64,000 bases of DNA from Paecilomyces variotii (lineage: Eukaryota), in the NCBI GenBank assembly GCA_004022145.1, contig RCNU01000007.1, one strand, 5' to 3'. The position numbers and the translations under genes were made by a program. Shown here in pieces: positions 1,450 through 49,842 of the stretch. The first letter of the stretch is position 1, and every line of letters starts with the position of its first letter. The notes under the pieces are model-generated. The model saw only the letters and a list, made by a program, of their open reading frames with translations. It was not told the origin of the DNA and did no database searches.

Positions 1450-3420
1450 TTATACTTTAGCAGACAGAGAAATCCTTGCTTCTTTCGTTTCCTCTTCCTG
1501 TTCGATTCCCTCGATAAATGATTCCTTAGCAAGCTGCTCTCTTGCCAGATGCCTAGTATTCTTCACATTTTCGTGCGGCCAAACTTGATTAATGGCCCAG
1601 TATACTGTAAACCCGAGAGTAAAAGAAAGACACCACCCCAGATGGCCCAGATTAGAAGCAGATTCTGACACATTCGCGCCGAGTGTCCCGACGAATCCTT
1701 TACCGATGTTAGCGATATTATCCGGACACTTGAAGAACAATGAGTTACTTACCCGGAAATGGTAGCGCGATTGCAACCACATATGCAATGTAAGCCCGTA
1801 AATTCCATCCTCCTGTGTACCAGTAATTCTCATTACTTTTCGTTCCGTTATATAGAGACGGAACAAAAATATTCCCTCTCGAAATCATGAAATACTCGCA
1901 CACCATGATCGCACAGACAGGCGCCATGAAGATTCCATAGCCAGAAAGGAAGGTAAGGAATGTGTTTGCAGAGAACATAATCTTCCATGGACATATGGCG
2001 TAGGCCAGAACATGAACAACAACTTGGCCTCGAACTATCGTCAGATACTTTGGCCAGAGCATACTGGCGTCGGAGCCAAATGGAATCATATTCGCTGCAA
2101 CGTTCGTGGCAAGCATGGATACCACCCAGGAAAAGGCGCAGAGAAAGATCGCAAACCGGACGTCGGACCGCCAATGCCTGTTCATGATTTCTGTCATCAG
2201 GTCCCATGGGTTCCATAGATCGGTTCCCCATTTATTGTTGATTGCCGCCGTTGCCAGGATACCCATGGTTGCGGAGAGGGTTACCGCTACGATATTGGCA
2301 AACTATGATCGAAAGTCAGCGACATGACTAGTTACTAGTATGGGTTATTGCACTTACAATGACACCAACAAAGGGCGACCGCGATGTCTTCGCCCACCGC
2401 GCAATATCAGGCTGATTGGTGATCAAGGTCGCCGTATTGCCCATTCCACTGTTGATGCACCACATGAAGAACCATCCAAGTTTGCTTCCGGAGGGTGCCG
2501 TTCCACCATACAGTGGTCCCAGGTTTCCCTTCGTTGCAGCCATACAATATATGAATAATCCGAACATTGCTGGTACTGCAATGGCGGCTTTGAAGGCAAA
2601 GAAACCCCGTAGCTGATGAGGGCGCAGGAATATGAATGGGATATGAATCAGCCAGAACAGGAAAAATGCTAGCATTTGCTGGGTAGTAAAGCCCATACTC
2701 GATGCGATGCCATTAGGGATATCCGTGAAGTGATGCCCGAAGATCGCATGGAGGATATTGACGAGGTAGCTAGATCCAGTATACACTATTCATGATTGAT
2801 GGGTGAGTTTATGCCTTCAAAGAAAAACAGAGAGAAGGGCTAGCTTACATTGTACTCCATACCATATGATAGCTAGGATAGCTCGTGCACCGACGACATA
2901 ATAGCTACCCCACCTGTGTATCATAACTATCAGTTTCATGATTGCGACAGTCGTTTTCTATATAGCACAGGACTCACATCCCAAAAGCAAAACGAGCTAT
3001 CACCGGGTACCCAATGTGGTAAGTTGTTGCAGCCTTGGAATTGAACCACGTCGCTGTGGCCGATATGGTTGTCGCAACAAAGATCACAACAATGGATTGC
3101 CACCAGTTGAGACCGATACCTACCATGCTACTTCCCAGCGTCCAGTTCCCGAATCCAAGTCCAAAGAAGAACGTCACATAATTGAACCAGTTCCAGTTGC
3201 GCTTCTCTGGAGGTGTTGGCTCTAGATCTTTGTTCGTCCATGCCCGCTCGTTAGAATCATGGCCTGAATCGCTATTTTGGAGCCATGCGACGAAAGCCTC
3301 TTTGCTTGACACGGTATATTTGAAGGCTCGTGCCTTTTCCTGGACACCATCTTTGAGAGTTGATAGTTTCGAACGCATCTCGGTAGCATGAGATAGCACT
3401 CTAGTGTCTCTGGATCCCAT
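1450..3420 (-). CDS. NCS1 family nucleobase:cation symporter (Fur4/Dal4-like uracil/allantoin permease), multi-exon
   Basis: Successive minus-strand ORFs carry NCS1 motifs: WTNKDLEPTPPEKRNW, YHIGYPVIARFAFG, NQPDIARWA, LWNPWDL, NVAANMIPFGSD, ICPWKI, GWNLRAYIAY. They are separated by canonical introns. The start could be the downstream ATG (MRSKL). Confidence 0.92.
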
Positions 3421-3829
3421 CACTTGGCTGCATCGCGGCTGTATGCGAGTTGTTAATGTATCACCGACGCAATTTTCTTATCTGGAGCTTTTTGATACGG
3501 CTCACATCTCCGATTAGACGTTGCTTAATGCAGTAGGTGGTTCTTTACCAATCGAACATGCTTATCTTTGGAGTCTCTCTTACACTATCGTAGTTATGCA
3601 TTCTCGGCGAATGAAATTAGTTAGCGAAAACGCCAATATCAGACAGCCTTACGTGTCCAGCGATAACGAGTAGTTCCATGTCGGCATCTCGCGCCACTAA
3701 CTAAAGCGGTTATGGATTATGCCCGTGGTTATTAAATCTACCTACATACTTCCCCATAACAGGATTCCATGAAGAAGCTCGAGCGTTCATCTTTCTGGTA
3801 ATCCTGTCTCTCTTCACGTCTCGTGGAAA

Positions 3830-14832: not shown

Positions 14833-15993
14833 ATGCTCGCATCCTCAGTCTTCCGTGTGGCACGGTCGCCAGCCGTGCCTTTTCCTGCTGTCACACCCGC
14901 TATCACATCGACATCGAACGGACTGCTTGCTACCGCGACCCGGCGTCAAGCGCAGCGCCGATACTCGTCCTCGAAGCCTCCGGTGCCCCCCAGTGATGGT
15001 TCGAGCCGGATTGATACCTCTCAGACTCCGGCTAAGGGAGTGAGTCCATCTGGACAGAAGCGTGAAGGCAAATCTTCCAGGCGGAAGGGCAGAGATAACA
15101 GCCGACATGGCTCTGCCAAGTCCAGCGAAAACACTGCTTTCCTGAACCTCCCCAGCGTTCCCTCGACGCAGCATCGCCAGCCTCATGGTTAGTTTTGTTA
15201 CTCTGATATTGCTTCTTGGTCATTGCATTTATTGGAGAATAGCTGTAAGCTGACTTTCCGTGAAACCTTAGACGTTCACATAGCCTCATTCTTCTCCATC
15301 CACCGGCCTATTTCCGTCACCACGACCGTTCCTCCAACCTCGAATGCCGAAGCTTTCGATGCCATATTCTCCAAGAAGGCGTCAAGAGCCGGTCCCGATG
15401 ATGTTATCCACACCATTTCATCCGCCGTGAATTCGATGGAGAACGTCATGCATGGCCAGCAGTTCGGTGCGTCAGAGCAGGATGAGCTCCGACATGCTCT
15501 CGGCCAAGCTTCCGCCAACAATGCGGAATCCGAGGTCATCCATCTCGATGGTATTCCTATGCACGAGCTGAGGATTTCCGTCGAAGAGATGACCAGACGG
15601 CTACGCCCATTCCACCCTCCTCCTCCCCCGGTTCCATTGGACGAGATGAACACGGCCGATCTGAACCAGGCTGAGGAGCCCTCCAGGTCTCAGACCTACT
15701 CGACGGTCCTGACGATCCGTGAGTCCACAGACGCCGATGGACAGAGGACGTACGAGGCTCACACGACGCCTTTTGTTCAGACCGAGATGGAAGCTCCCGG
15801 TGTGTTTGATGGCGAGGCTGCCATTGAAGAGCCCAACGGCTCTCGCAGCACCTACATGGAGCGCATACGTAACCCCCGGACCATGCACGCCATCAGCGTC
15901 AAGAGACAGCGCAAGCTGAAGATGAAGAAGCACAAGTACAAGAAGCTGATGCGCAAGACGAGAACGCTGAGACGCAAGCTGGACAAGGCTTAG
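14833..15993 (+). CDS. cox24: Mitochondrial Cox24/mS38-like protein (DUF1713 basic C-terminal domain); intron 15189-15270
   Basis: Arg/Ser/Ala-rich presequence-like N-terminus, FFSIHRPIS motif and C-terminal SVKRQRKLKMKKHKYKKLMRKTRTLRRKLDK. Confidence 0.8.
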
Positions 15994-20254: not shown

Positions 20255-21007
20255 GGAGACATTGATGTCAGTGTTCGCAGCTTCATCAATTAGCTGCGCT
20301 TTGAGTGGGCAGAGCAGAGTTCCGAGATGAGAGCTCGGGCCACACAAGCAGGCAGCCCGCCAAGATATCCAACTTATTACATAGTGTTCGCCAGCAATGC
20401 CTGGGTAACTGATAATAATGTCTATACTAATTTAAAATTGGAAAGGGGATACAGAGCAGACCTAAACGCAACTTAGATAAATCAAAAGTACAATGTTCTG
20501 TTGCAAGAATCGAGAAATTATCCGGTTCCAGACGCCGTACAATCCACCCGACGAAGATGTAGAGTACATTTCCCTTATTTCTACGGTATGTCTTAAGCCA
20601 GCAGGGAGATCGCTGAAGACTGTCAAAATGAGTAGGATTTCAACGAATTGTCTGACTTCAACATGGATACCGGCCTTCGAGGAGGTACGCCCATATCCAC
20701 TGCCACAAACGGCTGGCTGGTTAGCAGGATGATATAGGTCCTAGATATAGCTAGGAGTAGGAGATACTCAATATATTATTACCATAACTATTAATAAATG
20801 CAAGACTTATTATTATTATTATTATTCTCCTAGCACTTCGTAAGGAACAACTACAGTCGTTATCGGTATGCCGAAGCTGCCAATTTCTTGTTCCGGCGCC
20901 GAACGTTTCCCGGAAGCTCCACACATACAAGTATCGACCCACAACGCAACATATATTTTTTGTCATAGAGGCAAAAAAAGTCGAAAAGGCAAAAAAGTAA
21001 TTTCAAA

Positions 21008-21079
21008 TGACCTACGCAGGGATCGAACCTGCAATCTCTTGATTCGTAGTCAAGCGCCTTGCCATTGGGCCAGCAGGCC
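21008..21079 (-). tRNA. tRNA-Arg (anticodon ACG), intronless
   Basis: Acceptor stem GGCCTGC/GTAGGTC, D-arm TGGCCCAATGGCAAGGC, anticodon arm CTTGA-CTACGAA-TCAAG, T-arm GCAGG-TTCGATC-CCTGC, and downstream T-runs. Confidence 0.97.
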
Positions 21080-21758
21080 AGTTGATGGAGATCTGGCGGT
21101 AGTACTAATTGATAAACCTGCATTCTCATAGAGAAGCGCCTAGCTTTTTATGATTGCCTTTCTTTTCGGTTCTATATATCTCTATTATTGGCATAATTTT
21201 GGTGTGTGATGTGGTATTTGTTTATACAACTCTATGCAAGGACTTAAGGTGTTTTCATATGCATTTGCATTGAGGTGATAACTATGTGGTTGATGTTCCT
21301 CCTATGTCTAGAGCCAAGAATATAAAAGCGTTCTGCTAGACATTACAACAAGCATCAGAAACGAAGCGGCACATGCAGCTCTCAAACAACCCGTTCCCCA
21401 TGCTTACGCTATAAGTTCCTTACTGGAGCTAGAGCTAATGGATGGCCGATGAATAAAGACCTGCCGCAAGCTGGGCCTGAACTATCGTGGCAAGCCTAAC
21501 ACCAACTATATAGCCAGTTCGGATCCTGAGATTCCTCCTATCCTGGCTTTCTGCTCCTCTGGCAACAAGGAAGCGGTGAATCACATGTTGCCCACAACTT
21601 TCAAAAACCAATAAGAGGAGCTCAGGCTCCCGCTAGTGATTTGGAAGCCGAGCTCATTTATCGCTTCGCTCGTGCTCCGCGATATACCATTCCAACCGAC
21701 CATTGGCAAGGGAGCTCATCATATGATCAAACTGGCTACTTGAATAGACCATTCTCTC

Positions 21759-23278
21759 ATGAACTACTCATTTGCGCAGATATCTGTTCGAAGACCACCT
21801 CCAGCTAAATTTGCCAGACATTTTTCATCGATTTCCGGTATAAGGTCTGCCTCACCGACCAGATCTGCCCCTCAAATCCGAGAAGAGGATGGAAGTCCCT
21901 ACTATGATCCGAAGAAATATTACCCTGCTCGTGTTAGAGAGACTATCGGGAAATATTGTCTTATCTCAAAGCTCGGTTGGGGTGCCAATTCTACAGCTTG
22001 GTTGGCAAGAGACACCAGTCGGTTAGTTCATCATCATCTAGTTATTGGTCACTTAATAACAACGTGAAGGTGGGCGTGGCAGTCAACCCGATATATGACC
22101 CTAAAGATTACAAATTGTGGCAAGGAAGAACGGAGATCTGCTTCTGATGAGATAGAGATCTCAAGACACATATCCAGTCTGCGATCTAGCCATCAAGGTA
22201 GAGCATATATTCGGCTAGTAAAGGAAAACTTTAGCATCCAGGGCCCATTCGGAGAACATTTATGTCTGGTATTTGAACCATTGAGAGAAAGGAGTATTGA
22301 AAGAAGGGAACGGACAAGAAGCCCACCTGTATGTATTACGTGACACTCGGAATGAAGAAAGTCAAGGCCTTGAAGCAGTAGTTTTAAGAAGGGCTTCAGG
22401 ACCGCTGGAGGTACACCGTTGCTTCCTAGGTGTCTTCCCAACAACCAGAGTGGCTCCCTAATGGGAAACAAAGATCTGAAGTCAGATAACTTCCTCCTAG
22501 GATTCGAAGACTTTGGTGTCGTTGAGAGTTACGTCCGCCACCAGGAGGAAGACCCTGCTCCCTTTAAAGACTGCGATAATCGCCCTGTATTCCAATCTCG
22601 TCCTGATTTCGGGCAACTGAGAAAAGGGGTAGGACTGGTTCAGAGAAAAGGGGTAGGACTGGTTCAGATTAGCGACTTCAGTGCGGCAGTTTTCGGCAAT
22701 GTCTCTGTGCCCCATAATCATGATATTCAACCGCAACCGTTTTGTGCTCCAGAGGTACTCTTGAGGGCGACATGGTCGTATAGTGCAGATATATGGAACC
22801 TAGGAACAGTGGTGAGAGGACCCCAAAGATGACATTTACGCAAAATACTAAACTTACACTTCCGTAAAGCTCTGGGAGCTCCTTGCGGATCATGTTCTTT
22901 TCAATGGACTGGACGCTAAAAGCGCCACTTATTCTCGAGCGACACACATGGCTCAGATGATACGGCTCCTGGGTCCGCCTCCTCTTCGCTTATTGAAAAG
23001 GGCAGATGAGGAGATTTGCTCTCAGCTATTCACCAGCCAAGGTATGGTTTTGTTGATTAATTATATCCCGGGTGCTAAGTGTTCGATCAGGAGAGTTCAA
23101 ATTCCCAGACTTGATCCCTTCAGAGGAGTTTAATCTTCCAACCCTTACACCGTTCCTCGAGGGAGAAGATAAACGACTATTTCTCCAATTTGTGCGAAAG
23201 ATGTTATGTTGGGAGCCAGAACAGCGTTCAACAGCAAAAGAGCTTTGTGACGACCCTTGGCTTAATTACAAGTCTTAG
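21759..23278 (+). pseudogene. SRPK-like (SRPKL) Ser/Thr protein kinase gene disrupted by an internal inversion (22284-22459)
   Basis: KLGWGANSTAWLARD, YMTLKI, HLCLVFEPL, DLKSDN, ISDFS, CAPEVLL, ADIWNLG and FVRKMLCWEPEQRSTAKEL are on the plus strand. The segment REPLWL...LQGLDFLHSECHVIHT lies on the minus strand. Confidence 0.92.
22619..22666 (+). repeat. 24-bp perfect in-frame tandem duplication (RKGVGLVQ x2)
   Basis: GAGAAAAGGGGTAGGACTGGTTCA occurs at 22619-22642 and 22643-22666. Confidence 0.97.
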
Positions 23279-23521
23279 TTGCTATCGTCAATGCAACCTT
23301 CGCTTCAGTAAATTTGGATCGAATCCCAACTGCCTTTCTAAATGTCAATAATCTTGTTCCTCCCGTAGTCAATGCATACGCTTGTTAAAATTCTTGTAGG
23401 TAACTAGTACGATTGCTGAATACGTAGAGATTAATTATCACATGATCTAAATGCAGAGCCCACGTCGCCGCGTATACTTAACGATCTAGCCAACTTGCAT
23501 GAATCGTTGTTTATCTGATGC

Positions 23522-24562
23522 ATGTTACATGTCATCGCCATGACTTACCCATTGAGCCTTGATTACAATTCGGCCCATGGTATTAAAAAGCCCAAACTGC
23601 CTTATTTACTGGGTGACCAGTTCTCTATCGTCTCACACCGTCCCCCTCCTCCAACAAACGGCCGAGTGTCTCTTACGTCTAAGACAGCGCGGGAACGACA
23701 ACATGTGGACATTGTCACCCGTTGCCAGATTCATCCACCCCTTGAAGGGAAACTGATTCCCGAAGAAAGGTTCAACTTGGAGGTTTTGGAGACAATTAGA
23801 GTTGGCGATGGGAAGTCCTCCCAGGTGGTCTCTGTACGGATCCTTTCTGGTCCGAAGTTCGTCGACCTAGAGGTAGTAGCGAAATTCTATGATCCCCTCT
23901 ACTGCGACCATAGCTCTGATGATGTCGACCCTTTCCTATGTGTCGATAGAGACTATACGCATGAAACTGCTGCCTACATTCACTTGTCCGAGTCCTTGAA
24001 CGTCGTACCCCGGTATTACGGTTCATATTCATGGGAGGTGTCTGTCAACGAAAATCAGTCACGTCTTGTGCAACTCATCCTAATTGAAAAGATTAACGGT
24101 CCCTCGATGGATATGATGGATCCTCAGATGTTGACCGCCGAATTAAGGAAGAGTATCATGAAGGGGGTTGTCGATGCGGAGTCTCAGCTATATCAGCGGA
24201 ATGTTCGACATGGCGACATTCATCCGCGAAATGTGCTTGTGCAGCGGCTAAAGGACACGTCTGATTGCCCAGTGATCACCCTCATTGATTTTGGAAGAGC
24301 GGTTATTGGCCGATCTTATGACCCAACAGACCCCGAGGAAGAAGAGCAATATCTTCCCGGAACATATATTGGCCCCCTTCTTCGGTGGACCATGTCAGAT
24401 TCGTGGTGCTCGTATCCTTGCGTATACAAAAATTGGATCACGTGGGACTGGCAGTTCTGGCTTGAAGATGAATATCAAGGAGATGAGATTACAGAGCATA
24501 TGAGAGTTCTTTGGCTGCCTTCTCGAACGAAGCCGTTGCCTTCCCCACCGGACACTGCTTGA
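23522..24562 (+). CDS. Atypical protein kinase-like protein, single exon, intact
   Basis: 346-aa ORF with VVAKFYDPLY (beta3 Lys), HETAAY (helix C Glu), VPRYYGSY, LILIEKING, HGDIHPRNVLV (catalytic loop) and LIDFG. Confidence 0.85.
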   Translation: MLHVIAMTYPLSLDYNSAHGIKKPKLPYLLGDQFSIVSHRPPPPTNGRVSLTSKTARERQHVDIVTRCQIHPPLEGKLIPEERFNLEVLETIRVGDGKSSQVVSVRILSGPKFVDLEVVAKFYDPLYCDHSSDDVDPFLCVDRDYTHETAAYIHLSESLNVVPRYYGSYSWEVSVNENQSRLVQLILIEKINGPSMDMMDPQMLTAELRKSIMKGVVDAESQLYQRNVRHGDIHPRNVLVQRLKDTSDCPVITLIDFGRAVIGRSYDPTDPEEEEQYLPGTYIGPLLRWTMSDSWCSYPCVYKNWITWDWQFWLEDEYQGDEITEHMRVLWLPSRTKPLPSPPDTA

Positions 24563-25014
24563 GTGGATCTATCTACCTCGTTTTCATCGGAGCCGTTGAG
24601 ACCTGCAGTGAGACAGTACTCGTCCTTTATCCTTCTGAAACTTGCCGCATAGAAGTGTCGGCGAAGGTAAGGCAGTAGGGGGGCAGTCTTCCGCTGCTTC
24701 TGGATCGGGACAGCTCACTGGACCTTGCATGGCTAAACAGAATGTTCAGGGATGCGGGAGTATCTTCAATGCTTCCTTCGCTTTAGGTTTGATTTTCGTT
24801 CCTTCGAAGATCTGATTGCTCTCGGGGTGTTTCTATATCGGATTTCCTTGGTATCTTTACGGTAAGGGCGAACCACGCACTGAAGAGTCAGTGTCAATTC
24901 TCAATTTTCTCGCCGAGATCATTCGTGATTGTCAGCTCGCGTTTCTCAGCTCCCTTCGATGGAAGGTCTCTGCCATTAATGAAGCAGAAATTATTGACTT
25001 CTCTCCTAGCCTTA

Positions 25015-32604: not shown

Positions 32605-34629
32605 ATGGCGTCTGCGCCGCGCGGGTTGGCGGCGTACAAGAAGAAGGATGGCGTCCTAGCCATGGCGAAGGATGGCAAGACGATCACTTGGACGCCGGCA
32701 TCGGGCGATGCAGCTGGGATGGTGACGATTGCGGTTGGACATATTACCAGTGCGTTTTCCCTTTTCTTTTCTTGCTACATTTATGGTTTTTATGAGATGG
32801 TGTTTGCAAGTTGAGATTTATACATCTGGCTATATACAGAACGAGAGCTGACTGAAAGGTTGATGACAGATTTGCAGCAAACTCCAGCGAGTAATCCGAA
32901 AGTGATGCTGAGAGTTTTCGCCCAGTTACCGACCGCCACGGCGCCCGAGCAGTATGTTTTTTCTTTTACGAACGGAGCCAACGCTCGTCCCGAGGCGGAT
33001 GCTATCAAAGATGCCCTCAGTGCCGCGATTCAGGCTTCCAAGGCAGTGCCGACGCCCGGCGCAGGGACGGACGGCGTGTCGCCTGCGATGGCGATTGCGA
33101 GTGCCCTATCGTCGTCTGGAACTGGGAAGAATGCGTGGGACGACGATAACAAGCTCAGGACGGACGCGGAGCTGCAGCAGTCGTTGCTCAAGGCGGATGC
33201 GAACCTGCAGCGCATGTTCATGGAGTCGTTGCGCACCAAGCCGGATACGATGACGGGCGCGCAGTTCATGTCGCAGTTCTGGTCGACGAGGTTGCATCTC
33301 CTGCGGGCGCATGCGATCGAGAGGGCCCAGACAAGGGGATCCTATAATGTTCTCTCGACGCTGAAACCGCGCGTGGAGGATAACGTGACCAAGTTGAATA
33401 TTAGCAAGGAGCAGATCCAGCTCATTTTCAACCAGCATCCGCTCGTCAAGCGGGTGTATGATGAAAATGTGCCCAAGTTGAGTGAGCAGCAGTTCTGGTC
33501 GCGGTTCTTTCAGAGTCGGTTGTTCAAGAAGCTGCGTGGAGAGCGGATCTCGGAGACGGATCCGACAGATGTCATTTTGGATAAATATCTGAAAGTGGAT
33601 GAGAATGCGGATCGCAAACTCGAAGCACATGTGCCTCATATTATTGACTTGGCGGCGAACGAGGTCAACCATAGTCAGAAGCAGGGCAATCGGCCTGATA
33701 TTGATATGAGACCGACGACGTTGGACAAGGTGCCAATTATCCGGTCGTTGAATAGTCTGAGTGAGAAGATCATGGCCAATGTTGCGCCTGCTGATCGGGA
33801 TCCGTCGGCGCCTGTTGGTATGGATGAGGAGACGTACAACGAGCTGCAGTTGCGAGATCTGCGGGGCGACGAGGAGCAGAATCGTCTGATGCTGAATATT
33901 CGTGATCAGAGTCGGTTTTTCTCTCAGGCTAAGGATCTGGAAGATGAACAGAGCAAACTGTTCGCGCAGCAGGACCCAGAGCAGATTCTGGTCACGCTCC
34001 GCAGTGAAGTTCGACGTGATCTTCCGTCGGACGGATCTATCCCCTTGGGCAAGCTGGTCCAGCCGGAGGAGGATAGTGATAATGAAGAGGGCCCGCAGAG
34101 TCAGCAAGTCGGATCGAAGGCCAACCTGCAGCGTGCCTCGGCGCATATTCTGTCGAATATCCGCGAGCGGCGAGCGCAGACGGAGGTGACTTCATCTTCC
34201 GATACATGTGGCCTACCGAGTAATCTGTTCGACCGGTTAACACTGACGCATGCGACGACTACGGAGTTCCTGCATCAATTCTGGCAGGCCTTCTTGTCCG
34301 GCAATCCTGACCGCGCAGGAGAGCTTGCGTCGCTGGTCGAGTCGCTCAATCGAGCCATGGAGCGCATCAAGTCTGTGGCGGCTGATGCTGAGGCCGAGCG
34401 GCAGGTTGAAGTAGAACGACTGAAGCAGCACGCTCGCGACGTGCTGGCTACGACGGGGAAGAAGATCCGCGTCAACCTGGCGGGAGTGCCTGGCGGCGAG
34501 AAGGTAGTTAACCAGCTGCTTGGCCCGACTATCAAATCACTGGAGCTTGCAATGACGAAATACAAGGACGCGCTGGCGGAGGAGATGAGAGAAGCCCAGT
34601 CCAGCACGCCGGGACCCAGCCAAGGATGA
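32605..34629 (+). CDS. tfb1: TFIIH p62 subunit (Tfb1), PH-like plus BSD domains; intron 32750-32869
   Basis: AAYKKKDGVL...NLQQTPASNPKVMLRVF N-terminal PH domain. BSD motifs LQQSLLKAD...FWSTRLHLL and IFNQHPLVKRVYDENVPKLSEQQFWSRFFQSRLF. Confidence 0.93.
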
Positions 34630-45501: not shown

Positions 45502-45595
45502 GCCCGGGTGGTCTAGTGGTATGATTCGCGCTTAGGGTCAACCCTTTGCTTAGCTATATTGCGCGAGGTCCCGCGTTCGATCCGCGGCTCGGGCC
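45502..45595 (+). tRNA. tRNA-Pro (anticodon AGG) with a 22-nt intron (45538-45559)
   Basis: Acceptor stem GCCCGGG/CTCGGGC, D-arm TGGTCTAGTGGTATGAT, CGCGC-TT-AGG-G[intron]T-GCGCG, T-arm CCGCG-TTCGATC-CGCGG, and a T-run terminator. Confidence 0.96.
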
Positions 45596-46668
45596 CTTCT
45601 CTTTTTGCATTTTTTTGCTCCTCATCTATATAAATCTGGAAGAAATGGACCTCCATTCACAGATACCTTGCGCATATAGCAGTGATACATAGGCACTTTC
45701 ATAGCAGCCACCTTGTATGTCTTCTTATTACCTACAACTTTCATTGTAGTGACCAATTCACAACTGGAATGGGCCGTCAAACCCCGCATTGTTTGGTGAA
45801 GTCGCTGGACCGGCAGTTAAATACAGCTTCTATCTCCATTCGCTTCTTCTCTTCCTGATAGTTATTTGCAGTTTCCAACATAGTCGAGCTGCTGCAAGAC
45901 GGCACATTACCTCTACTTTCGATCAATATCTTGAGTCAGAAATCTCACTTTTCTCCTTGCTATCTACAGTCAACTCCCAGCATTTTCGAACCCGCTCTTC
46001 ATTGGCTTTGCTCCTGATATCGTCAGCTCCGTGCTCATTTATATATATGACTGCTATGTCGGTGATGTCTTGAATGCATATATATAGCAGAGTACATCCG
46101 ACAAAGCTTCTAAGCGCCGGATCAAGAAAGCGAACCGGCTTGTACACCAAGAGGATGCAGTGACCGATACCTTGATGTTTACAGAAAGAGGGCGAAACGA
46201 TATTCGTGTCGATCGTGCTGGTCCTTCGGTCGCCCGGACTCCCCCGTCTCGTCGTGCCTTTCAGAACTTCGTGATTCACGTTGCGGATTGGACGATCGCG
46301 GAGTTAAGGGCCTTCCCAGCAGAGCTAGCGGAGTTCGCCGTGTATATCGACGGCGTTATCGATGCTCGTGAGACCGGGCGACATGCTTGGTTGTCAGTCG
46401 TTTTTAAACTTTTAATCAAACTTCTTTATAGACTGTCTCATCAAAAGGTGATAACCTTGGTATATCCTCTCATCGATAAATCTCTCTGCAACTCTATAGT
46501 TGGAGATTTACTCCGTCCTACTTGACCTCAGTCAACCGTATCTCTGAAACGGCTGAGTAAATCCTCATTGTGTCAGCCTCCTTGTGCTCTCCCGGTTCTT
46601 ATTTTTATATTCGCCGCTATATCTTGCCAGCAGTATTCCTCCTCTGAAACCTTCTTCCTATAGCCTCC

Positions 46669-47955: not shown

Positions 47956-48255
47956 ACCGCAAGAAAAATCCGTCTTGGGACGACCTGTCCATTCGTGGCC
48001 GCACTTACGAGATCAGACGTACACAATTATACTCAATGAATTTCATAAATAATAGCCTCTATCCAATACTTTGACAATTTCGACTTATCCTTCCACTGGA
48101 CTCAAGCCCCTACTGCTTGACTCCTGCGTTCGCTTTTTATATCGTCATCTTTTACTTTGATTCTATATATTAGGCAACAACATGTCACATGGGAACCGTG
48201 GTCGACTCTTAGCAGAATCAGACCTCATTCAGAGCCATCCAGCCCAACTGTCGAC

Positions 48256-49842
48256 ATGGCTGAATTTCCACGACAGCAAGACCTCACAGAGGAAGTAAGA
48301 GACCTCGAAGCGGATTTTGCTGATGAGACGATGAAGCCAAGCGTGCCACCACCTCGCCCGACATCCGAAGGCATTTCTGAGCTCCTGGCAGCGGTTTCTA
48401 AACTCGAGAAACGCGACCATATACAGGTCGAGTCCAGCCGCAGGGAAGCAAATCCTCTCACTAGTCCATCTTATCCTCCGATAGGGGCTCCAAAACGAGT
48501 CGCAGAGATCCTAGATTCCCTCGCCAGTCTGTCAGTTTCTCAGCCGAAGCATGAAGTGATTGCGGTCGCATTACGCGTGGATTCAAGGTCTCACTCAATG
48601 GAACTTATCGTATCTGGCAATTCAGATATACTTTCATCTACGCTAAATCATTTGAGATTCATATGGACGGCATTGAAAGCTCTATCCGACTTCATGTACG
48701 CCAACAAGCAACCAGGTCTCCAGGATACATCGCCTAATGAGAAGACAAAAGACCCGGCCTTTCGAGCTATTGTGGCTGATTTCAATCATCGCTGTCTGGA
48801 ATTCACATTCGCAAGGCTCCAGCAGAAAGTCAATGGGAAATTTACACAATTTATGAGCATTCCAACAGCTGGTCTACCTTCAGATCACCCCTTCAACTCT
48901 CTCAGAGAGACTCTTTCATATCTCGAACGTATCTTTACGAGAAAGGAGGGAGCTATATACGGAAAGCCTCATCATGATGACACAGACAACTGGAGACTGA
49001 TGTACAGCTGCCTGAGAGCTTTCTCACAAGCCTCGGGTCAATTCTTGCGTGCGGGCGGTTTTCAGGGGAAAGATAAGACGCGTGCCCTTGGGTTCCTGAA
49101 ACTCCACACTTACATTCAAAAGATCGCTTCGATATTCAACAACATCGATATATTAGTGAAAGCCGCCATATCACCGAGATCTCGGACCCTTTTCACGTGC
49201 AACCTGAGCGTCACTCCACTTGCAAAGCTATCGGGTAGGCTGCCTCATATCGCTGAAAACGCCAGCGACTGGAAACGTGTGCTTGAAGAATCTTTGGCAT
49301 ACTATAACATGTCCAGCGATCCTACCGATCTTACCGGGGCAAGGCAAGTTCTCGATCTGAAGGTCATAGACGCAGACGCCACATACATGGCTCGGGAAGC
49401 CGTCTCCAAGGACGTTATCGTCCACTGCGAAACGAGGTTGTTGGCAGCAATCGAGAAAGCCCAGAACGAACGTGGGAACATACCCAAGGCTTTCACGTAC
49501 ATAGGCGTATCCAAATTGTCTTGCCACGGGTGTGCATGCTTCTTTGCAGCTTACAACCGTGTACACGGAACATCATGGCGGACGAAGGCGAGTCATGGGA
49601 AATCATACTATCCATGGATGTTCCCACCAGTCGTCCCAGGAAAGGATCAAGTTCTCACAGCAACCTACGCCATTATTTCCGCGAAATGGGTCACTTCTTA
49701 CAGAGGCTATCGACATAGGTTCGTGCCGTTAGTTGCTGTTGCTGATTCTACCGTACGCGTGCCAGCACTCGAATACTACGATGAGGAGGATCAGACTCCG
49801 GCTGATATAGAGGCGTTGAGAGAGATCGTCAGGAACTTATAA
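48256..49842 (+). CDS. OTT_1508-like Zn-dependent nucleic acid/nucleotide deaminase (528 aa, intronless, intact)
   Basis: N-terminal LDSLASLSV...EVIAVAL...LIVSGN block. C-terminal VHCE...YIGVSKLSCHGC...SHGKSYYPW matches the HxE / SKxxCxxC / HGKxYxxW signature. Confidence 0.85.
   Translation: MAEFPRQQDLTEEVRDLEADFADETMKPSVPPPRPTSEGISELLAAVSKLEKRDHIQVESSRREANPLTSPSYPPIGAPKRVAEILDSLASLSVSQPKHEVIAVALRVDSRSHSMELIVSGNSDILSSTLNHLRFIWTALKALSDFMYANKQPGLQDTSPNEKTKDPAFRAIVADFNHRCLEFTFARLQQKVNGKFTQFMSIPTAGLPSDHPFNSLRETLSYLERIFTRKEGAIYGKPHHDDTDNWRLMYSCLRAFSQASGQFLRAGGFQGKDKTRALGFLKLHTYIQKIASIFNNIDILVKAAISPRSRTLFTCNLSVTPLAKLSGRLPHIAENASDWKRVLEESLAYYNMSSDPTDLTGARQVLDLKVIDADATYMAREAVSKDVIVHCETRLLAAIEKAQNERGNIPKAFTYIGVSKLSCHGCACFFAAYNRVHGTSWRTKASHGKSYYPWMFPPVVPGKDQVLTATYAIISAKWVTSYRGYRHRFVPLVAVADSTVRVPALEYYDEEDQTPADIEALREIVRNL

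Follow-up and report, generated by a model that had tools for sequence, protein, structure and literature searches.

In a 64,000-nucleotide stretch of DNA from Paecilomyces variotii (contig RCNU01000007.1 of assembly GCA_004022145.1), a five-exon gene for an SRPK-like (CMGC) protein kinase (21759..23278, plus strand) is disrupted by inversion of a 176-bp segment, 22284..22459, which now reads correctly on the minus strand. The whole stretch is called the window below, and positions are counted from its first letter. Intact, inverted and further altered alleles of this gene all exist. Taken together, they make it very probable that the inversion was a one-off event, inherited in one lineage of a P. 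variotii-like mould, and that it left a lineage-specific pseudogene.

Read along the plus strand, the frame of exon 2 runs through ...GEHLCLVFEPL and then breaks down, with 19 unrelated codons, including RERSIERRERTRSPPVCIT, leading to a premature TGA at 22341..22343. The missing piece is found on the opposite strand. The minus strand of 22284-22459 reads REPLWLLGRHLG...LQGLDFLHSECHVIHT and then passes into intron sequence. Its coding part (22327..22459) is the distal portion of exon 2, with 44 codons (REPLW...HVIHT) followed by a single base, the first of the codon for the catalytic Asp. Its intron part (22284..22326) is the 5' end of intron 2, 43 nt long (GTGGGC...), as seen both in the rebuilt intron and in an intact allele that reads through it (P0001, see below). 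The final 14 nt of the intron (22460..22473), with the AG acceptor at their end, have stayed on the plus strand outside the inversion.

Breakpoints were tested by scripted re-inversion at 10 candidate pairs. With a single pair only, 22284/22459, does the left junction read FEPL-REPLW and the right one ...LSLMGNKDLKSD. Inversion of 22286-22457 has an identical result, AG being the first two letters of the piece and CT its last two. The left breakpoint is therefore placed between 22283 and 22284 or, equivalently, between 22285 and 22286, and the right one between 22459 and 22460. Intron 2 rebuilt in this way is 57 nt long (GTGGGC...CTAAT...AAG) and splices ACA G to AT CTG AAG, which restores H-T-D-L-K-S-D-N with no base gained or lost. 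When the other three introns are removed as well, the five exons give a stop-free product of 435 aa. The derived sequence is the exact reverse complement of the ancestral stretch, as checked against two non-inverted alleles (P0001 and P0002), and the inversion itself is far beyond chance. An earlier note on this DNA had already described the collapse of the frame after HLCLVFEPL, the lost exon piece and most of the intron on the minus strand, the exact segment whose re-inversion mends both junctions, and the absence of stops from the other exons. In all these respects it was correct, to the base where bases were given.

Protein search with exon 3 retrieved P0002 and about 120 SRPK-like kinases from Aspergillus, Coccidioides and others. 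P0002 is an intact protein of 427 aa, named in NCBI as hypothetical protein of Paecilomyces variotii and representing a cluster of 10 member sequences. In BLASTP comparison with this protein, plus-strand 22068-22343 matches residues 88-161 (E 1e-51), minus-strand 22284-22459 matches residues 160-203 with 44/44 identical (E 2e-29), and plus-strand 22374-22832 matches from residue 204 onward (E 9e-74). P0001 (5 member sequences) is a protein of 237 residues that was called on 4 Logan contigs. It crosses non-inverted DNA, intron included, and equals the translation of the re-inverted window letter for letter. The same order is found outside the species in P0003, named Aspergillus californicus and the closest such match among those inspected (...FDPLREPLW...IIHTDLKADN). 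Comparison of orthologous loci, a check proposed in the earlier note, gives colinear sequences in another strain (P0001, P0002) and in orthologues of other genera such as P0003; the intact order is therefore ancestral and the window form derived. Gene conversion from an inverted paralogue was also considered. It was rejected, because the flipped piece is 44/44 identical to the allele of its own locus and its intron part equals P0001 too. Inversion aside, the window allele differs from P0002 by 8 substitutions and an insertion of 8 residues. The gene had been called otherwise intact, which is true of its exons in so far as they are open; the 24-bp duplication behind the insertion had been overlooked.

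The arrangement is not confined to the assembly. A run index, searched with words of 31 letters, contains 20 runs from 11 studies with at least part of 21700-23300. Orientation was compared on Logan contigs in four of these runs, X1 and X3 from study P1 and X2 and X6 from study P2. In all four, contigs span the two junctions, oriented as in the window and free of joints. The contigs of X1 (21045-25000, word depth 42) and X2 (21045-23077, word depth about 1991) show 0 differences from the window. That of X3 (21231-25000, word depth 36) differs by 3 single-nucleotide polymorphisms (SNPs), and that of X6 (21045-25000, word depth 151) by 11 SNPs and 6 insertions or deletions (indels). Three genotypes are thus present among the four runs. 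All sampled words were found in X1 (share 1.00 in the index search). In X2, the main contig is broken into pieces of 60-64 nt at 23079-23195, where side contigs (depth 8.2 and 22.8, the main depth being about 1900) deviate by 1-2 letters. Minor variants, a paralogue or errors may account for them.

Order of events can be read from a second mutation. Exon 3 of the window contains a perfect tandem duplication of 24 bp (22619..22666, plus strand) that keeps the reading frame and inserts 8 residues immediately ahead of the SDFS (DFG-like) motif. The duplication is missing from P0002, from P0001 and from the inversion-bearing X6 contig, in which one of the indels is one copy fewer. Since X6 is inverted without being duplicated, the inversion is the older of the two and the duplication is a separate later mutation. 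One complex event generating both was rejected on the evidence of the same contig. The alleles in these four runs and the two protein records form a nested series, from intact (P0002, P0001) through inverted (X6) to inverted and duplicated (window, X1, X2, X3), and this fits a single event followed by decay. The inversion is inherited within a lineage and is not private to one strain. The earlier note had favoured a recent one-off inversion by microhomology or template switch. Its one-off nature is supported by the ancestral form found elsewhere, the base-perfect flip and the short arms. Very recent or private it is not, because all four runs, in three genotypes, carry it and because it predates the duplication and several SNPs.

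The gene model was fitted to P0002, and all its parts are given on the plus strand. Exon 1 (21759..22021) was placed from the sequence and the alignment to P0002 and opens with the start ATG at 21759. Intron 1 follows (22022-22069), its donor GTTAGT beginning at 22022. The proximal part of exon 2 (22070..22283), which has kept its orientation and ends in ...FEPL, corresponds to residues 88-161 of P0002. Exon 3 (22474..22811) opens with AT CTG AAG (..DLKSDN of the catalytic loop); the SDFS and APE motifs follow within it. Intron 3 (22812-22869), exon 4 (22870..23041), intron 4 (23042-23090) and exon 5 (23091..23278), which includes the TAG stop at 23276-23278, complete the gene.

The intact allele belongs clearly among protein kinases. 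P0002 reaches 98.2 bits against Pfam Pkinase (PF00069; cut-off 31.7), while single exon pieces of the window copy score 21 and 19.8 bits, under the cut-off, as expected of fragments. The Lys, H-x-D, D-L-K-x-x-N and A-P-E motifs of kinases are present in the intact allele. Its alignment to human SRPK1 (1wak, E 7e-40) extends from one end to the other. The 13 top structure chains are all SRPK1, SRPK2 or Sky1 (E 7e-40 to 4e-37) and the next one is DYRK3 (4e-19), so that similarity to DYRK is about twenty orders of magnitude weaker than to SRPK/Sky1. Resemblance to solved SRPK structures thus extends over the whole protein. Within the SRPK family (human SRPK1/2, yeast Sky1 and many SRPK-like paralogues in Eurotiales and Onygenales), P0002 is a short fungal paralogue.

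The flip takes out the part of the gene whose product, in the SRPK1 alignment, lies just ahead of the catalytic loop and reaches into it. The inverted residues 160-203 align to the SRPK1 stretch ending ...CRIIHTD (C-lobe, leading into the catalytic loop), and we take them to be helices D and E of the usual kinase nomenclature. The flip also parts H-T of H-T-D from its Asp, splits intron 2 and sets the TGA in frame after the 19 foreign codons. An uninterrupted catalytic core is not found in the window copy, residues 160-203 being on the opposite strand and the plus-strand frame ending at the TGA. The inverted allele can presumably make no active kinase, and the window copy is best described as a putative pseudogene allele of the SRPK-like family.

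We propose that a single mutational event turned round the 176 bp, that is, the last 44 codons of exon 2 together with 43 nt of intron 2. The inverted allele would then have been inherited unchanged, later gaining the 24-bp in-frame duplication and point changes in the manner of a pseudogene. Both ends of the segment are located in an imperfect inverted microhomology, as the earlier note had pointed out. Its left arm is CCATTGAG (22278..22285) and its right arm CTAATGG (22458..22464), which includes the CTAAT branch-point-like motif; both are given on the plus strand. The arms contain a perfect inverted match of 5 nt (CCATT/AATGG) and match at 7/8 with one gap over their whole length. A balanced, base-perfect inversion with its ends in a short imperfect inverted repeat can be read as the signature of inter-strand template switch and return. 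The most likely route would thus be a nascent strand that, during replication, switched to the opposite strand and back at CCATT(G)AG/CT-AATGG. Precedents exist. The available text on yeast coding genes describes 'spacer inversion' between short inverted repeats by inter-strand template switching (PMC8604942). The available text of a human-chimpanzee comparison reports short inversions, some with flanking inverted repeats, under a four-point model, and names fork stalling and template switching (FoSTeS) and microhomology-mediated break-induced replication (MMBIR) (PMC5453318).

Several points weigh against this reading, either in its mechanism or in its reach. When 5000 random pairs of breakpoints 176 bp apart were drawn from the window, 6.1% had an uninterrupted inverted match of 5 nt or more within 10 nt, and 3.2% attained an equal gapped score. 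The microhomology is thus weakly above chance and gives no proof of a homology-guided mechanism. Yeast spacer inversions, as far as the available text describes them, have arms of more than 9 bp, substitute 2-5 bases and were searched for with spacers of at most 70 bp (PMC8604942); a spacer of about 165 bp with arms of 5-7 nt falls well outside that range. Logan contigs drop rare variants and are therefore a weak test for mixed orientations in one culture. The comparison covers four runs; the others (X7-X24) include isolates and metagenomes with a word share of 0.61 and RNA runs with 0.28-0.57, and these shares are not usable as evidence on orientation, expression or habitat. X1 and X2, identical to the window over the compared stretch, may represent the source strain, in which case X3 and X6 alone are independent carriers. 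Loss of kinase function, finally, is deduced from sequence.

The first two of these points bear on a second route to the same one-off inversion, by which two double-strand breaks about 176 bp apart would have released a fragment that was end-joined in reverse, with a 2-nt match (AG/CT) at most. Strict homology at the breakpoints is indeed merely 2 nt (AG...CT), the CCATT/AATGG match being offset by one base. Breakage and rejoining is also favoured by an inverted match barely above chance and by a distance between the arms that far exceeds that of template-switch spacer inversions in the available yeast text. Against it, neither junction has lost or added a single base, and such perfection is less expected of two independent end-joinings; the inverted match, moreover, sits exactly at both ends, as in 3-6% of random pairs. 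Neither a transposon footprint nor a target-site duplication is visible in the sequence at the inversion, and this too speaks against rejoining. Overall, we regard rejoining as possible but subordinate. Within the one-off reading, template switching is somewhat the better candidate, and breakage and rejoining takes a distinctly smaller share of our confidence. The mechanism is inferred from the junctions, which by themselves cannot choose between the two.

Other explanations accept the inversion and see a function in it. One is that the inverted allele has been re-purposed, cryptic donors being joined to the acceptor at 22473 to give an in-frame pseudokinase or a truncated N-lobe regulator. 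In its favour, two GT sites, 22294 (GTATTG) and 22333 (GTATTA), would splice to exon 3 in frame. The acceptor and the CTAAT motif are unaltered as well, and the remaining exons have stayed open through the divergence among carriers. However, GTATGT at 22329, which looks the best of the cryptic donors, would not keep the frame, any such product would do without residues 160-203 and the catalytic Asp, and open exons are expected by chance at a divergence so low. We consider re-purposing highly improbable. With window 22068-22343 as query, none of the 3 gene calls of near-equal length has the derived tail (RERSIERR...; best match 62% identical) and none of 15 longer calls reaches the inverted piece, all covering at most 81% of the query. 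This null result says nothing on how common the inverted allele is. A 20-nt pattern from the left flank gave 0 loci in metagenome contigs. Two metagenome loci matching a 20-nt pattern inside the segment were rejected as chance, with only 21 nt common with the window.

The earlier note had raised, as a speculative alternative, a reversible intragenic ON/OFF switch. Such a switch, spontaneous or recombinase-driven, would produce kinase-ON and kinase-OFF cells. Some features agree with it: both orientations are present in the species, the inversion is exact, so that a second flip would wholly restore the gene, and the inverted arms with the CTAAT motif outlast the flip. According to the available yeast text, very short spacer inversions have also been reversed over evolutionary time (PMC8604942). 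Each of the four runs, however, contains one contig path in one orientation. X2 kept side contigs of depth 8.2 and 22.8 next to its depth of about 1991, yet its inversion-crossing contig is unbroken. This is a weak hint, from the records inspected (34 more exist), that the opposite orientation makes up well under 1% in X2. The inverted allele has, moreover, had time to acquire the duplication and SNPs without flipping back. Its arms of 5-7 nt compare poorly with the 11-nt repeat and enzyme of a bacterial example (10.1101/2023.03.11.532203, available text). No longer inverted repeat surrounds the segment among the 25 longest of 123 inverted pairs in 21700-23300. Recombinase or transposase Pfam families were found neither in the gene's own pieces nor in the 21 scanned of 36 open reading frames (ORFs) of at least 150 aa in the window; those checked among the other 15 overlap scanned ORFs in other frames. 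Titles and abstract openings retrieved in literature searches include no report of a fungal intragenic inversion switch or of this locus. With single orientations, nested alleles, no long inverted repeats and no recombinase domain in the scanned ORFs, the switch is unsupported, and we hold it to be very unlikely. The same low credence applies to its mildest form, a naturally reversible kinase locus with both states kept in populations, in which the segment might flip back at a rate below contig detection; such a locus would be a eukaryotic counterpart, independent of enzymes, to bacterial intragenic invertons. The exact flip, the surviving arms and the still open exons are compatible with this form.

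Mis-assembly around inverted repeats can create short inversions, but an artefact restricted to the assembled sequence is practically dismissed here, since contigs of four runs from two studies, with word depths of 36 to about 1991, show the inverted and not the non-inverted arrangement, two of them differ by SNPs or indels, and a match of 5-7 nt is far below the 31-letter words and should be unable to mislead an assembler.

The kinase gene is located among ordinary genes. Directly downstream, a frame of 347 residues (23519-24562, plus strand) scores 29.2 bits for Pkinase, below the cut-off, and 25.8 for APH and 22.3 for Kdo, above theirs, and could represent a second gene with an atypical kinase fold. 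Five small indels of X6 fall between 23401 and 23538, just upstream of this frame and at its start. A tRNA-Arg(ACG) gene (21007-21080, minus strand) precedes the kinase start codon by about 680 bp. There the contigs of all four runs break and word depth goes up about 5- to 16-fold, as is to be expected where a tRNA gene has several copies. A tRNA-Pro(GGG) at 45502-45596 (plus strand) is long for a tRNA, with 95 nt, and may contain an intron. An OTT_1508-like deaminase domain (58.2 bits against a cut-off of 27) is found in a frame of 573 residues (48121-49842, plus strand). Further neighbours are a purine-cytosine permease (1745-3477, minus strand) split over three frames by introns, a COX24-like ORF (15193-15993), a homologue of TFIIH p62 (32815-34629, plus strand) with BSD and PH_TFIIH domains, and a HAD hydrolase. 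These ordinary, housekeeping neighbours argue that the region is core genome and not a mobile element. A mobile-element or Starship context was rejected on the same ground, together with the lack of transposases in the scanned ORFs.

As a natural example, this is a very clean balanced, base-perfect inversion of less than 200 bp in a eukaryotic gene, with ancestral, inverted and further-decayed alleles all in one species. It provides a useful lineage marker for a food-associated mould. It can also serve to test programs for variant calling and gene prediction, in which an event of this type tends to be mistaken for a cluster of substitutions or a split gene. No new regulatory system is revealed: one member of the large family of SRPK-like paralogues has been lost in one lineage.

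Among known systems, template-switch spacer inversions (Ripley-type events, the four-point model of Loytynoja and Goldman, PMC5453318, and the yeast cases, PMC8604942) are the natural comparison. As far as their available texts go, they share with the present case the replacement of a stretch by its exact reverse complement without loss of bases, the short and imperfect inverted repeats left in place afterwards, the setting in coding DNA and the difference from strain to strain. In contrast to the yeast events described there, about 165-176 bp separate arms of 5-7 nt here, the arms are not homogenised, and the gene is destroyed instead of being changed in one or two residues. The case is one data point suggesting that template-switch-like inversions may reach well past the few-base spacers catalogued in yeast.

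Bacterial intragenic invertons are recombinase-driven, reversible and preprogrammed, with both orientations in one 'clonal' sample, and the available text gives an example of 57 bp with an 11-nt repeat (10.1101/2023.03.11.532203). Judged by that text, the P. variotii inversion resembles them in being wholly intragenic, in its inverted repeats at the ends, in the premature stop in one orientation and in a size of the same order. It differs in its single orientation per run, its shorter arms, the lack of a recombinase in the scanned ORFs, its eukaryotic host and the part-intron within the flipped piece. With FoSTeS/MMBIR and break-rejoin inversions it has in common a breakpoint homology of 2-5 nt and the absence of long repeats and of a mobile element. 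Events under the FoSTeS/MMBIR models are usually of kilobase-to-megabase size and often complex, with change in copy number. On the contrary, the inversion described here is simple, balanced and sub-nucleosomal, and the duplication near it is separate and later, as X6 demonstrates. It adds an unusually tidy new case to a class of mutation that is already known, and does not represent a novel type of system.

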